Positions 15,801 through 49,510 of a stretch of 64,000 bases of DNA are shown here, in pieces (the first letter of the stretch is position 1; each line of letters starts with the position of its first letter). Source of the stretch: Gammaproteobacteria bacterium (GTDB lineage Bacteria; Pseudomonadota; Gammaproteobacteria; CAJXQU01); the NCBI GenBank assembly GCA_965238175.1, contig CBDEGZ010000003.1:2848001-2912000 (forward strand), read 5' to 3'. The notes beneath the pieces were generated by a model that did no database searches, was not told the origin of the DNA, and saw only the letters and a program-made list of their open reading frames with translations. Made by a program: the position numbers and the translations under genes.

Positions 15801-16977
15801 ATAAAGAGCTATTTGTAAAAGATCCCCCGTTTGGAAAACCTATTTCTACTCCCCAAACGGAGCTTTAAACTACGGTGATTTGTTCGAATTGTATGCCAAG
15901 CACCCGAACTTGAATTCATAGGATGTAAGAAAAAATCAGAAGCAGGATAGACCTTACGAAGTGCTACATACAAGGTTTCAGGTAAAGATGTGGTTAAAAT
16001 ATGGAATGGATGAATTCAGGTTTGTTTGTTGTGGTTGGAAACCAGAAAATGCTAAGAACGATAGTATTTATTCTGATGATTTGAAAACAATCAATCCCAA
16101 TTTATGAATTGTCCGTTTCAATGTAGGGTGCAATGAATTTTGATAATCAAGAAAGGGACTCCTTGCCGGAGTTTCATAGATCCAAGGGTGAGTTTTATGT
16201 GATCGTAAAAATACTAGATATATAAAAAACGACATACAGCAACGAATAAAGTCGCGCTGCTTTCTAGCAAGTGCTTCTTAACATTAAAAAACAGACTCTA
16301 TCAACGCTTATCGAATAAATTAATAATAGAATCATTAAGTGATGTATCCATTAAAAACAACTCAAAAAACGAACGCTATACCATTAGAATAAAAGAAACT
16401 ATTAACATAGAAGAAAGGAAATTTATTTGGATGGCTTATCTGAACTTTATCTTGATACTGAACTTCAGGAATCATACTTTAAGCATTTTGCTTTTAAAAT
16501 AATTGGAAGCTCTTACATTTTAACTGAAGTGAAAGAAATTAATAGGCATAAAGTCTTTGCTATTCTCCAAGCAAATTTAATGAGCGTAGCAGGTGAATAG
16601 ACAGGAGTTGATGAAAAATGGCTGGTTAAAAATATAATCGACTCATTTGAAAAACGAAATATCTTATTTGATGTATAAGTCGATATTTGAGGATTATTTG
16701 GAGGAAAGGTCAGGAAAGGCACCACAGGCTATTATACTTATACCTTACCCTCCTTCCATAATTAATAGATTCCATATCTAAAATTTTGATAATTTAATTT
16801 TTAGAGACTATTCAAGATAACGCAACTTAAAGTATTATCTAAAGATGAGAAGAGTCGATTAATTGAGTTATTTATTGCAGACTTAACCGCTCGAATAGCT
16901 GCCTCATTAGTCGATGTGAATGTATTAGATAGCGAATTCAAGACAATAAGTTAGATGAAAACACGGTGACTGTTTTG

Positions 16978-17110
16978 TCCAGTGGACTTCTTTTAGTCGC
17001 TATCAAAGCGGAGTTGCGTAGCAATAGCGGGCTATTGAAAACGACTCAACGCACAGAGGCGCTAAAAGAAGTCTGCTGGATGGGTATTTCTTATCCCGAG
17101 TTCAGGTTAT
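16978..17110. repeat. Palindromic MITE/REP-like element, one terminus preserved
   Basis: TCCAGTGGACTTCTTTTAG pairs with CTAAAAGAAGTCTGCTGGA; inner CAATAGC/GCTATTG; terminus CCCGAGTTCAGGTTA. Confidence 0.7.
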
Positions 17111-17131
17111 TTAGTTAACAGAGTATTCTAG

Positions 17132-17749
17132 ATGTATGGCAGCTTAAAAGCTAATCATGGGGTCAAACCATTGGGAAACAAAAATACAGACGCTGTCATT
17201 TTTCTGCTTATGCAAGAGGCTGATGCGGCATTTTTCATACAAAAGTTACAAGAACATGCACCGTTTACGGCTTTAGAACATATAGTGTCCATTCAAGCTC
17301 TTGAACAACGCATCGAACACTATACCAATACAACGACATGCCCAGCACGTATTATCTCATTCTGTTCACCCCTCATTGTACCGCAAACCATTTTAGAGCG
17401 ACTACAGTTTAATGCCTATAATTTCCATCCCGGCCCGCCAGAGCGCCCTGGCTTTCACCCAACAGAATTTGCTATTCATGAAAAAGCTGAAAAATTCGGT
17501 ATCACTTTTCATCAGATGTATGCAAAGGTCGACTCAGGGCCAATCATTGATGTGCTACGTTTTCCTATCACGCCAGAAATGAACGTTGAGACACTTGAGG
17601 CTGAATGCTATAAAGCTCTTTTAAGTATTATAGTAAATCGAGCTGCTGAACTTGCCAACGTCAGCTTTCATTTTGAACCAATGCGTGAAGATTGGTCGGG
17701 CATAAAAACAACCCGCAAAGATCTCGAACGAATATATAAATATGGGTAG
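17132..17749 (+). CDS. Formyltransferase-family protein
   Basis: YNFHPGPP, GITFH and VDSGPII motifs. Confidence 0.8.
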   Translation: MYGSLKANHGVKPLGNKNTDAVIFLLMQEADAAFFIQKLQEHAPFTALEHIVSIQALEQRIEHYTNTTTCPARIISFCSPLIVPQTILERLQFNAYNFHPGPPERPGFHPTEFAIHEKAEKFGITFHQMYAKVDSGPIIDVLRFPITPEMNVETLEAECYKALLSIIVNRAAELANVSFHFEPMREDWSGIKTTRKDLERIYKYG

Positions 17750-18074
17750 AGCTTATGATTAGAAAATAAATAGTCAGAGCCTGAGGGATCCCATGAAATT
17801 GGTATAAATAATCAAGCATACAACGGCTCTCTCATGGGTTGTTATATGTGCTCAGAGGCTCTTGTCCAATCTTTCTCTTTGAGTTTTAACGTTCTATCTT
17901 TGAAACGCTCTCAATTTTCACCGAGGAAATATTTCCTAATTTATAATGTCGTCTTTTTTGATTGTAAAACGGGCTCTATGTAATTAACCTGATGTGATGG
18001 TCTCCTCCCCCTAACGGCATCTAGGTGCCATGATTGAACTGACATACACACAATCAAAAGAGGAGAAGACCAAA

Positions 18075-19088
18075 ATGAAGACTACAACAATCGGGTTAGA
18101 CATAGCAAAAAACGTATTTCATGCTGTCTGCTGTAATCAACAAGGGCGTATAATCAAAAAGAAAATGTTAAAGCGAGCGCAGGTACTCTCCTTTTTTCAA
18201 TCTCAACCTCCTTGTTTAGTCGCAATAGAATCTTGTGCAACGTCACAGTATTGGGCCCGAGCGATACAACAACAGGGACATCAGGTGAAATTACTACCAC
18301 CTCAGCATGTTAACGCATTTCTAATCGGCAATAAGAATGATTATAACGATGCCTTGGCCATCGCCGTTGCTGCGAAACAACCTCATTTAAAAAGTGTGGG
18401 CATTAAATCAGTTGAGCAACAAGACAACCAGGCACAACATAAAGCAAGAGACTTAGCGGTCAGACAAAGAACCGCATTATGTAACCAAATGAGAGCGCTT
18501 GTTGCAGAATATGGCATTAGCCTTCGTCCCGGCCTAAATACCCTACGTCAATCTATCCCGTTGCTATTAAGTGATGAGAACGAACGGTTGTCCGTTACTT
18601 TCAAAAGGATACTGCGCCAGCTAAAGGAACAATGGCAATCACTTGATGCCTGTATTGCGACATTTGACCAATTGATCATTCAATCGGCAAAAAACAATGC
18701 GATTTGCCAACGCTTACAAACTATTCCAGGGTTTGGGCCGATGGTCTCGAGCGCGTATTTTAATGAAGTGGGAAACGGCGCTCATTATCACAAAGGGCGC
18801 GATGTGTCCGCCTCATTAGGACTTGTTCCACGACAGTACAGTAGTGGTGGTAAAGAGGTGCTACTGGGGATCAGTAAACGCGGCAATAAATACCTTCGTT
18901 GTTTGTTAATTCTAGGCGCGAAGGCCGTGGTATCAAGAGCCAAAACGAAAGGCGATAAACTGAGTCAATGGATTAATCGTTTAGTTGAGACGCGGGGGCA
19001 TAATCGAGCGTGTGTGGCGTATGCCAACAAAATGGCAAGAATGGCCTGGGCTATAACGGTTTCTGGTGATGACTACTCACCGGCCTAA
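18075..19088 (+). CDS. IS110-family recombinase/transposase
   Basis: IGLDIAK, AIESC and KNDYNDA (DEDD); GLVPRQYSSGG and ISKRGN; AGGAG RBS before the 18075 ATG. Confidence 0.93.
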   Translation: MKTTTIGLDIAKNVFHAVCCNQQGRIIKKKMLKRAQVLSFFQSQPPCLVAIESCATSQYWARAIQQQGHQVKLLPPQHVNAFLIGNKNDYNDALAIAVAAKQPHLKSVGIKSVEQQDNQAQHKARDLAVRQRTALCNQMRALVAEYGISLRPGLNTLRQSIPLLLSDENERLSVTFKRILRQLKEQWQSLDACIATFDQLIIQSAKNNAICQRLQTIPGFGPMVSSAYFNEVGNGAHYHKGRDVSASLGLVPRQYSSGGKEVLLGISKRGNKYLRCLLILGAKAVVSRAKTKGDKLSQWINRLVETRGHNRACVAYANKMARMAWAITVSGDDYSPA

Positions 19089-19318
19089 ATAGAGAGAACA
19101 AATCATTTCAACGAATTGCGAAGGTAAAACTAAAGATGGCATAACAGGTCAAACCAGCCTATTGAAAACCTGTCGAGCTCAGGGGTAACTAATACCGATA
19201 ACCTGATAAGGAAAATAGGCGCGTAATACATCCAGGTCAGAAGTTGAAAACTTCATTGAAGGCCGTATATATGACAGCAATCCTGTCCCTGTTATCTGAA
19301 TGTTTTATCTTGCAATAC
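19089..19318 (+). ncRNA. Predicted bridge/seek RNA of the IS1111-type element
   Basis: Nested stems ATAACAGG/CCTGTTAT, GCCTATT/AATAGGC, GGTA/TACC, GAAGTT/AACTTC; loop segments match the target and the circle junction. Confidence 0.75.
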
Positions 19319-19339
19319 GGGAGGAGACCATATATGAAC

Positions 19340-20565
19340 TGTAGAAGTTTAGACCCAATCTGACACATCACTAAATCAAGCGGAGCGTAGCGACGCTTGA
19401 TTTAGTGAGAGTTACCCGCTTTGATGTAACTGCAACGTAAACATCAAAACACAAAGAGGTAACTCTCATGATTCATACTAATGACAAAGTTATAAAACAT
19501 AAAGTTGGTCTACTCAATCTCGCTGAAGAACTCGGCAATGTCTCAAAAGCCTGCAAGATGATGGGTTTGTCCAGAGATACATTTTATCGCTACAAAGAAG
19601 CGGCTGATGAAGGCGGTGTAGAAGCCTTGTTTGATCGTAATCGGCGTACCCCAAATCTTAAAAACAGAATCGACCCGGCTATTGAAACCGTTGTGCTCGA
19701 GTATGCACTGGAAGAGCCCGCACATGGTCAAACGCGCACCAGTAACGAGCTGCGCAAACGGGGAACATTTGTCTCACCCAGTGGCGTTCGTTGTATCTGG
19801 CTTCGTCATGGTCTTGCTTGCTTTAAAGATCGCCTGAAGGCATTGTCTGATAAGGTAGCTGGTGAAGGCTTGATCCTCACTGAGTCTCAAGTCGCGGCGA
19901 TGGAACGCAAAAAAGACGACGATGAGGCTTGTGGCGAGATAGAAACGGCACACCCTGGTTATCTTGGCTCGCAAGATACTTACTATGTCGGTACTTTCAA
20001 AGGCATTGGTCGGGTTTATCAACAAACGTTTGTTGATACTTACAGCAAGGTCGCTCACGCGAAACTGTACCCGACTAAAACACCGATTACGGCAGCTGAC
20101 ATGCTCAATGACCGCGTCCTCCCATTCTACGAAGAACAACGTTTGCCTATGTTGCGCATTTTGACAGATAGAGGGACGGAGTATTGTGGGCGAGCTGACC
20201 AGCATGATTATCAGCTTTATATGGCGTTGAACAATATCGAACACACCAAAACCAAGGTCAAATCACCTCAGACGAATGGTATTTGTGAGCGATTCCATAA
20301 GACGATCCTCAATGAGTTTTATCAAGTCGCTTTGCGTAAGAAAATTTACCAATCGATTGATGAACTGCAACTCGACCTTGACGAATGGTTGCTCAAATAC
20401 AATACTCAACGAACTCACCAAGGCAAAATGTGCTGCGGGAGGACGCCGATGGAAACACTCATCGACGGACAAGCTATCTGGAAGGAAAAGTTTTTGAACT
20501 AAACTTAACCTGACAGTCAGTTACAGAAAAAGGGGTAACTGTCAGATCAAGTCTGAATTTCTACA
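19340..20565 (+). mobile_element. IS481-family element copy 2 (transposase 19468-20502)
   Basis: Same termini and ORF; no TSD; joins the accessory island to a truncated backbone gene. Confidence 0.95.
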
Positions 20566-21439
20566 CATAAGTCACTGCTTCAAGAATCGACAGACCTTGA
20601 AAATCATGTAATGCACTAGAGACAGCCACATCTGAGTTGATCATAATTGATCTATATTCATCTTCGTCCTCAACATATCCCCAATTTAAAATATGATCCG
20701 ATAACGGCACTTTCATTTGATCAAAAACAACCGGCATTTGACGAAACTGCTGTCCAAGCATATTCAATTTAAAATCAACTTTACGTTCTTTAAGCTTAAC
20801 TAAAGCTTGCAAAAAACGTTCAGGTGCTTTGTCATATTCCCAACGATGATTCCACAAAATGGTGAGTGATGATGGCCTCTTTTTAGAATACTTATTTTCG
20901 TTTGGACTATTTATTGGTTTATTCAAAGGCACGGAAAGCACGATCGACTTTTGAGATATTTGATCAACAATTCCGACAGGAACACCGTCTGGCATTTTTT
21001 CTAAAAACAAAGTAGAACCTTGAAGAAAAGTTTGCCGATTATAATCTGAGTTAAACACCAATCTATCGGCTGCTAATGCTGAATAAAGCGTCACCATTTT
21101 TGCTTCTACATTAAGCTGTTTATGATCACCTTCAGGATACGTAAATTGATTTTCATGAAAATAAACAATGGATGGAATTTGCGCTAGCGAAGGAACCAAA
21201 CCACGCAAAGTTGCAAAATCCGTCATCGATGTCGCAATAACCAGATCATAAGATTGACTTAAGATCGCCTGCTCAGAAAATGCCCAGGTTAAACTATTGC
21301 CACGGATCCGCCATCTGAAATAGCGAGCGGGTAGCGTTAAGATTGTCCAATCGTGTTCTGGAAAGTTTGCTACCAACCCCTCCCGCCAATAGCGATGACT
21401 GATCGCATCATAAGCAGAAAGTAGTAGAATTTTTTTCAC
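20566..21439 (-). pseudogene. DUF3524/GT-B glycosyltransferase (tRNA-queuosine mannosyltransferase-like), 3'-truncated by IS481
   Basis: LPARYFRWRIRG, YFHENQ, LWNHRWEYDK, HDFQGLSILEA then a stop inside the IS end. Confidence 0.8.
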
Positions 21440-21650
21440 AATTTATTAACCTGGGGCTGGAAAAAGTTCGTCTCAAATTGACTACATAAAACATGAGGTT
21501 TATAGACTTCGACAATAAGATCCTTCCAACTATCGCTGTCAGAATACATAGAACTTCATCCTGAGCTGCACGAAAGATCTCACTGTCGAAGCCACGGAAT
21601 TAATTGTTGACTCTCTATCCCAATGGAGCAAACCATCCTCTCAAATTAAA

Positions 21651-49131: not shown

Positions 49132-49430
49132 CGTGAAACAAACCGATTATGTTCAAAAGGCAGATATAAAGGATGACGTTTTTGATCAGATCTAGTTAAA
49201 TGCAAGCATCTTTTATAACAACTAGATAAGGTTGCATCATGGGAAAGAAGGCTTGGACAGTACGAAAGAACTAACAAGACTACACTTTGAAAGCGTCTAT
49301 AGATAACAAGCTGTATTAGAAGAACATTAGTGTCGTACATAATTCCCCACATGGTCGTTTGCTGTTTTCAAGTCTAAAATGAATTGAATAGCATAAAACA
49401 TGCCTAAGGGAGCAACAAAACTACTTAATC

Positions 49431-49510
49431 TGATGTGATGGTCTCCTCACTTACGACATCTTGGTGCCATAATTGAACTGCTATAAACACAATCACAATA
49501 GGATGTACAC
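49431..49510 (+). mobile_element. Left-end remnant of a relative of the 17990 IS1111 element
   Basis: TGATGTGATGGTCTCCTC...GGTGCCATAATTGAACTG, similar to 17990-18041. Confidence 0.8.

Follow-up and report, generated by a model that had tools for sequence, protein, structure and literature searches.

A candidate bridge/seek RNA in an IS1111-group insertion sequence that very probably guides insertion into the ends of a MITE family in a gammaproteobacterial genome

IS4321 and IS5075, insertion sequences (IS) of the IS1111 group of the IS110 family, are sited in the terminal repeats of Tn21-family transposons. A comparable association has been described for IS1111 of Coxiella burnetii, 20 of whose 21 copies are associated with QMITE2 (2018, PMC5896051). 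For 93% of IS1111 elements, a bridge RNA was predicted to lie in the right end (Durrant et al., 2024, PMC11208160). In four IS1111 members the RNA co-purifies with the transposase, and it was shown to be both required and programmable in ISEc11 among others (Siddiquee et al., 2024, PMC11187229). Both the location of bridge/seek RNAs in the non-coding region 3' of the gene in IS1111 elements (PMC11187229, PMC11208160) and the insertion of IS1111 into a miniature inverted-repeat transposable element (MITE; PMC5896051) are already known. Here we describe an IS1111-type element found in a stretch of 64,000 nucleotides (hereafter the window, whose numbering is used throughout) from a gammaproteobacterium (assembly GCA_965238175.1, contig CBDEGZ010000003.1, positions 2,848,001 to 2,912,000). 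The element spans 17990-19334 on the + strand (1345 bp), and very probably encodes a two-loop bridge/seek RNA that guides its insertion into the terminal repeats of a MITE family and into look-alike ends.

A first-pass annotation of the window had placed the element at 17984-19339. This range does hold it, together with six target bases on the left and five on the right, and the true limits are 17990 and 19334; all the sequence strings that the annotation cited were found in place. The element is preceded by TAATTAACC and followed by TGAAC (19335-19339). Read from the left on the + strand, the locus comprises the left target (LT) TAACC (17985-17989), in which AACC is the MITE terminus and T the final base of the 4-bp target duplication of the MITE, the left copy of the core dinucleotide TG (17990-17991), the left terminal extension ATGTG, or right donor (RD; 17992-17996), and the left subterminal inverted repeat ATGGTCTCCTCCC (17997-18009). 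At the other end, the right subterminal repeat GGGAGGAGACCAT (19319-19331), complement of the left one, is followed by the right terminal extension ATA, the last bases of the element (19332-19334), the right junction core TG (19335-19336) and the right target (RT), which in this copy is AACTGT (19337-19342). The two repeats are exact inverted repeats over 13 nt and stand 7 nt (left) and 3 nt plus the core (right) from the element ends. The non-coding region is 246 nt long 3' of the transposase gene (19089-19334) and 85 nt long 5' of it (17990-18074). A longer 3' non-coding region, subterminal repeats of 7-17 bp and short terminal extensions are features of the IS1111 group, to which the element belongs.

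The transposase gene (18075-19088, + strand) encodes 337 amino acids followed by a stop codon. An in-frame ATG lies upstream at 18030; alignments with homologues begin at residue 1 when the gene is taken to start at 18075, and GAGGAG is found 8 nt upstream of this start. The protein matches the Pfam families DEDD_Tnp_IS110 (PF01548, E 3.6e-16) and Transposase_20 (PF02371, E 6.4e-20), which are respectively the RuvC-like domain of the N terminus and the domain of the C terminus that has the conserved Ser/Thr-Gly, and scores 302.9 bits against the NCBIfam model NF033542, 'IS110 family RNA-guided transposase', for a cut-off of 140. The DEDD residues and the SSGG serine motif had been reported as intact, and their conservation bears this out: D9, E52, D89, D92 and G258 (the last in the YSSGG motif) are invariant or show one exception among 64 aligned homologues, and the motif GLVPRQYSSG is present. 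The C-terminal 120 residues align with the structures of IS621 and ISCro4 (E about 2e-4), with the Ser-Gly of SSGG set against the Ser-Gly of the IS621 ESG motif. The catalytic residue of IS621 is S241 (PMC11208158), and by our reading of the alignment the SSGG serine would correspond to it.

BLAST of the host genome detected 25 copies of the element, one of which is cut by a contig start. The 24 complete copies are 1347 bp each when both cores are counted; 22 are identical, two carry one substitution apiece, and all open reading frames (ORFs) are open. They occupy 24 distinct pairs of flanks, and these define the target. To the left, TAACC is present in 23 of the 24 copies and AACC in all; the base at -6 varies. 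On the right-hand side, all 24 copies have A at RT1, and RT2 is A in 19 (G in 3), RT3 C in 16, RT4 T in 22, RT5 C in 17 and RT6 G in 14, which gives the consensus AACTCG and an overall target TAACC|TG|A(A/G)CTCG. The specialization on a repeat family proposed in the first-pass annotation is thus borne out by sites collected throughout the genome. Insertion is sequence-specific and occurs without target duplication, the 2-nt core alone being present on both sides at the 24 sites; one empty site has the sequence AACCTGAACTCGGG. TG stands at both junctions of all 24 copies and YG in 57 homologous elements, the window element and 56 relatives. An earlier suggestion that the shared core is TGA is rejected because the subfamily has only YG in common at the two junctions; the A is shared by coincidence in this genome.

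Most right flanks run on as TGAACTCGGGATAAG, the terminal inverted repeat of a non-coding repeat of about 210 bp. This repeat is a MITE with nine near-full-length copies in the genome, whose ends read AACCTGAACTCGGGATAAG... and ...CTTATCCCGAGTTCAGGTT. A 4-bp duplication surrounds five of the six MITE copies examined, and in four of these five it spans an end occupied by the IS. Since the MITE duplications can be read across IS-occupied ends, the element inserted precisely into MITEs that were already in place. It entered precisely at the boundary of AACC and TG, 4 bp in from the end of the MITE, with no duplication beyond the shared TG. Other repeats with the same terminal sequence are also hit, as is a second type of end, TGAGATCGGTTTAAGCC. 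The window itself contains a MITE copy (16940-17113) that lacks about 40 bp of one end, inverted repeat included; its other end, AACCTGAACTCGGGATAAG (17095-17113, - strand), is a perfect target that is unoccupied, and the minus strand of 17095-17110 reads ATAACCTGAACTCGGG. The flanks of the window IS copy match this terminus, as had been noticed at first reading; the copy does not sit in an intact MITE, however: on its right, AAC (3 nt) leads straight into TGTAGAAGTTTAGACCC, with which an IS481-family element begins at its left end. Its right target is accordingly made of AAC plus the first bases of that end, and fits the right guide described below in three of six positions.

The 3' non-coding region (19089-19318) contains the structured core of the predicted bridge/seek RNA (19134-19297, + strand). 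Its single-sequence fold is better than that of shuffled sequences (z = -2.7), and a consensus fold was computed from nine sequences. Pairs were counted on an alignment of 48 homologous regions built blind to structure, from which one homologue with an internal deletion (L065) was excluded. The 38 pairs of the eight helices were paired in 94.9% of the cells, versus 29-38% with slid partners; 21 of the 38 pairs showed changes on both sides, and none of 500 shuffles reached any of five measures. The fold expected by the first-pass annotation is thus kept by compensatory changes. Besides outer stems, it contains two internal loops, both of which have a basal stem and a hairpin cap. In the target-binding loop (19157-19220), the basal stem (19157-19164/19213-19220) includes the pairing of GCCTATT (19157-19163) with AATAGGC (19214-19220), which had been recognized at the outset as closing a loop that holds target-matching segments; both the pairing and the two segments are confirmed. 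A second stem (19169-19171/19209-19211) and a distal hairpin (19184-19187/19193-19196) complete this loop, and its helices 3, 4 and 5 are 99.5%, 99.3% and 97.4% paired, with six, one and four pairs changed on both sides. The donor-binding loop (19221-19278) has a basal stem (19221-19222/19277-19278), a stem (19235-19238/19261-19264) and a distal hairpin (19240-19243/19251-19254); its helices 6, 7 and 8 are 97.9%, 100% and 92.2% paired, both sides being changed in all four pairs of helix 8. A hairpin CCTG...CAGG (19169-19183) present in the single-sequence fold was discarded, as it is not conserved in homologues.

In the window element, the target-binding loop carries CGAGCTCAGG at 19174-19183 and ATAACCTGA at 19198-19206. 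The first holds the right target guide (RTG), CGAGCT followed by the core complement CA and by G (19174-19182, + strand); the second holds the left target guide (LTG), TAACC plus TG (19199-19205, + strand), which has the sense of the top strand and would pair with the bottom strand. Covariation of these segments with targets was analysed in relatives. A total of 386 loci was confirmed and the best 80 were kept; five had no subterminal repeat within the contig and seven only a spurious one, leaving 68, with L057 re-added, of which seven with a shifted or different repeat anchor and five with short flanks were dropped. The remaining 56 loci and the window element make up the 57 elements mentioned above, which contain 49 distinct guide pairs. 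Flanks were cut by anchoring on the subterminal repeats only, and loop columns were read from the alignment. The 5' segment of the loop is complementary to RT1-6 in 42, 44, 42, 39, 34 and 34 of the 49 pairs, then in 15 and 14 at the next two positions; the 3' segment agrees base for base with LT1-5 in 48, 46, 46, 43 and 38, then in 11 and 6. The signal therefore ends sharply beyond RT6 and LT5. The base next to the core complement of the right guide pairs with LT-1 in 37 of 49. Mean cognate matches out of seven positions were 5.10 for RT and 4.86 for LT, compared with 2.19 and 1.87 for non-cognate combinations, and the observed cognate sums were reached by none of 10,000 permutations. Guides follow flanks across very different targets: one homologue (L031) has the flanks GATC|TG|AGGTTA with the guides TAACCTCA and GATCTG, another (L042) the flanks TTCGC|CG|CAATGA with TCATTGCG and TTCGCCG. 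Relatives whose guides are nearly those of the window element include the ones of Shewanella frigidimarina KCTC 23109 (L033) and Paraglaciecola algarum (L037). The close homologues are single-copy, each in its own genome. As to the sites themselves, the window element and its close marine relatives are found in ends beginning AACC|TG|A, and many distant members (L048, L050, L053, L055, L079, L093, L094, L096, L097, L100 and L108) in sites of the form GTAGG(N)|YG|G(A/G)TTAGC that resemble repetitive extragenic palindromic (REP) sequences.

The same relation is seen between two sister species. Among 26 genomes (the host's own, six congeners and 19 further members of the class), the element was matched only in the host genome and in one other member of the genus (G008), as a piece at a contig end that is 84% identical over the RNA region. 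At the place of the window's CGAGCTCAG, this piece has CGAATTCAG, and it adjoins the flank TGAATTCG, that is TG-AATTCGGGATAAG (TG-AATTCG), with a match of six out of six. The flank is the terminus of a MITE copy that belongs to the family found in the host. This comparison shows a guide that has changed along with the MITE end; together with the 49 guide pairs, it upholds the covariation of loop segments with targets. Near-full-length MITE copies are present in two of the seven genomes of the genus, the host's and G008; three others (G007, G009 and G011) have a single partial match each, and G006 and G010 have no MITE match.

The donor-binding loop had been proposed to match the two strands of the predicted circle junction, and the homologues agree with this. 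ACATC is found at 19228-19232 and ATATATGA at 19267-19274. The right donor guide (RDG), ACAT plus CC (19228-19233, + strand), is complementary to RD1-4 (ATGT) and to the G of the core; the left donor guide (LDG), ATATA plus TG (19267-19273, + strand), has the same sense as the right end plus the core. The latter is identical to the right end, or left donor (LD), at LD1-5 in 49 of 49 guide pairs and at LD6-8 in none, and in 46 of 48 its first core base is the one present at the right junction (T in both for 18, C in both for 28). The right donor guide is complementary to RD1-4 in 48, 48, 48 and 47 of 48, and RD4 covaries with it (T:A in 10, A:T in 37 of 48); fewer homologues match at the core, 36 and 23 of 48 at its two positions. 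The donor guides thus track the element ends, but these ends vary little, which makes this a weaker test than the covariation with targets. Joining the right and left ends gives TTGCAA (19311-19316, + strand), 17 nt and TATGAT, the -10 half being assembled from ATA, TG and AT only on joined ends. This is the promoter-like arrangement that circularization had been predicted to create, with the spacing of 17 nt confirmed; TTGCA is invariant in 48 homologues. The linear element contains no promoter-like site on the + strand, in agreement with ISEc11, for which only a junction promoter was seen (PMC11187229).

With ISEc11, ISPa11 and ISKpn4, as these members are described in print, the present element shares a DEDD transposase of 330-350 amino acids with the motif GL-P----S(t)G (PMC11187229, PMC11208160), subterminal inverted repeats, a long non-coding region 3' of the gene, a promoter at the circle junction (predicted in our case), and a top-strand match located 5' of the bottom-strand match with an overlap at the insertion point (PMC11187229). 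This top-strand-first order of guides is that of IS1111 seekRNAs and the reverse of that in the IS110 group (PMC11187229). The element differs from these three in its target, TAACC|TG|AACTCG, a MITE terminal repeat. With IS621, an IS110-group element of known structure (8wt6 and others), it shares two internal loops, a left guide for the bottom strand and a right guide for the top strand, a shared core dinucleotide (PMC11208158) and a C-terminal Ser domain that aligns (E 2e-4). Unlike in IS621, the RNA is encoded in the right end instead of the left one, the order of guides within the loop is reversed, the core is TG/CG instead of CT, the subterminal repeats are long, and sequence alignment is limited to the C-terminal 120 residues. 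In preferring a site within another mobile or repeated element, it is comparable to Coxiella IS1111 in QMITE2 and to IS4321/IS5075. However, the Coxiella element is sited in a GTAG REP inside the MITE (PMC5896051), whereas the present one enters 4 bp inside the MITE terminal inverted repeat, and both the host lineage and the MITE family differ. In the literature on IS1111 with MITEs, seekRNA and bridge RNA, nothing was found on this element or its marine relatives; as this covered neither ISfinder nor the supplements of the papers, the element or its subfamily may already be catalogued, for example in ISfinder or in the supplements of PMC11208160 or PMC11187229.

These comparisons demonstrate, at the level of sequence, family membership, target preference, fold, and covariation of the four guide segments with target and ends. 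By analogy with the tested systems, the element would excise as a circle, and the joined ends would create the promoter TTGCAA-17-TATGAT, which would drive the DEDD/Ser transposase gene and the non-coding region behind it. This region would fold into a bridge/seek RNA with two internal loops, the first providing the two guides for the target TAACC|TG|A(A/G)CTCG, the second presenting ACAT-C for pairing with G+ATGT of the left end and ATATA-TG to match the right end plus core. The transposase would bind the RNA, with strand exchange at the TG core (PMC11187229, PMC11208160, PMC11208158).

The genome offers a test of guide use. It contains 491 empty TAACCTG heptamers and 28 that are followed by the left end of the element. 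Matches to the right guide over RT1-6 numbered at least five in ten of the complete copies, four in seven, three in five and two or fewer in two; among the 491 empty sites, they numbered at least five in four, four in 13, three in 34 and two or fewer in 440. Because these classes differ between occupied and empty sites, occupancy climbs steeply with complementarity to the right guide, though not absolutely.

Several observations nevertheless weigh against RNA-guided insertion as we describe it. The two insertions that match RT in two or fewer of six bases are one; in addition, 19 of the 24 sites have A at RT2, where the guide base C at 19178 would pair with G, and none of the 24 complete copies occupies a site with a match of six out of six. 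The sole guide-perfect site of the genome (TAACC-TG-AGCTCG, C3:393937) is empty. Six of the 49 homologues match RT in two or fewer of seven positions, one of which (L043) looks, by eye, like a register shift of 1 nt. In the right donor guide, a C stands opposite the T of the core, which is a mismatch. No circle joint, nor any joint across the element, was seen on 16500-21500 in the contigs of the sequencing runs X1 and X4-X6, the latter three, which bear the same species label, having no coverage there and rare circles being invisible in contigs. Finally, Rfam 15, which may or may not include a bridge RNA family, gave no match to the region, but only two sub-threshold chance matches outside the core of the non-coding region. 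The element occurs in three listed sequencing runs, none of them RNA, which belong to a single study and probably to the sample behind the assembly. In X1, unique sequence has a depth of about 2, the IS one of 37.8 and the IS481-family element one of 116, values that reflect no more than copy number. About 20 bp from the empty perfect site, an IS copy (C3:393963-395307) is inserted the other way round, at a site of poorer fit (RT AATTCT).

Of the alternatives, the one that survives best supposes that the machinery is real but that the element is the fossil of a past burst and is now immobile in this genome. The missing circle and empty-site joints would fit this view, as would the four empty sites with at least five right-guide matches, but rare circles cannot show in contigs, and the identity of 22 of 24 copies over 1347 bp with all ORFs open points to very recent copying; we therefore consider it improbable. 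From the same identity of 22 copies and the integrity of all 24 ORFs, we infer that the element is probably active, as the first-pass annotation had supposed. Recognition of the target by the transposase alone, which might for instance read the shape of the MITE inverted repeat, with the 3' non-coding region a mere tail bearing accidental matches, could account for the two poorly fitting insertions, the empty best-fitting site and the silence of Rfam. It is nonetheless very unlikely: guides change with flanks in 49 homologues with very different targets, to a degree that none of the 10,000 permutations reached, the match is confined to RT1-6 and LT1-5 within the loops of a fold conserved by compensatory changes, and the RNA is required in the tested relatives (PMC11187229). 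An origin of the target-like segments as non-guiding copies of former insertion sites, captured by the non-coding region, would likewise yield a correlation of loops with flanks, but is hardly conceivable, as one segment is complementary to the target and the other equal to it in sense, the two overlap at the core at fixed positions of a conserved fold, the donor loop has the same geometry, and this layout is the architecture of tested bridge RNAs (PMC11208160).

Guidance by the two-loop RNA introduces no new principle, yet the present element is an unusually clean case of it. Twenty-four independent insertions of one clone and the empty sites of the same genome amount to a natural specificity profile, in which the left guide would be strict (5 nt plus the core) and the right guide would tolerate one or two mismatches. 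The 49-member covariation gives apparent guide lengths of 5+2 for LTG, 2+6(+1) for RTG, 5+2 for LDG and about 1-2+4 for RDG, which may help the programming of IS1111-type recombinases, less studied than IS621. Finally, the IS lineage and the MITE family stay together across two sister species, the guide changing with the MITE end.

The core showed a further peculiarity. In 12 of the 49 guide pairs (L056, L058, L059, L065, L077, L083, L086, L088, L093, L094, L100 and L108), TG at the left junction goes with CG at the right junction and in both left guides, for target and donor; the core complement of the right target guide is read as CG in 11 of these 12 loci. The reverse pattern (left CG, right TG) was found in none of the 49. 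This suggests that the first core base of the left junction may be inherited with the element. The bases AT that follow the left target guide (19206-19207) are identical to RD1-2 in 42 and 41 of 49, and to RT1-2 in just 12 and 4; the base after the left donor guide (19274) equals RT1 in 28 of 49, for a shuffle mean of 19.7, a count reached by 82 of 20,000 shuffles. As the homologues are interrelated, these numbers overstate independence. A tentative and rather doubtful interpretation is that bottom-strand guides read past the core into the sequence met after strand exchange, a handshake-like geometry that would, with the one-sided inheritance of the core, be unlike IS621. If true, it could offer a natural handle on the directionality of insertion and excision in IS1111-type recombinases.

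The IS481-family element adjoining the window copy (19340-20565, ORF 19468-20502) is about 1226 bp long, scores 279 bits with NF033577 and has the ends TGTAGAAGTTTAGACCC... and ...TCTGAATTTCTACA; nearly 60 full-length copies are present in the genome, at least five of them inside the window. The junction formed by the IS1111 right end, TGAAC and the IS481 left end is identical at three loci with differing outer flanks. A mobile IS1111/AAC/IS481 composite was considered; no matching duplication was found beyond the IS481 right end at any of the three loci.

Elsewhere in the window, a solitary and diverged left end of a related IS1111-type element (49425-49503) shows 84% identity with the first 81 nt, with CTTAATC|TG before it and no transposase gene after it. 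Beside its 3.33-Mb contig, with 40.4% G+C, the assembly includes two small contigs, C1 (10,967 bp, 55.8% G+C) and C2 (8,481 bp, 43.9% G+C); C1 does not match the chromosome in composition, and could therefore be a plasmid or contaminating DNA.

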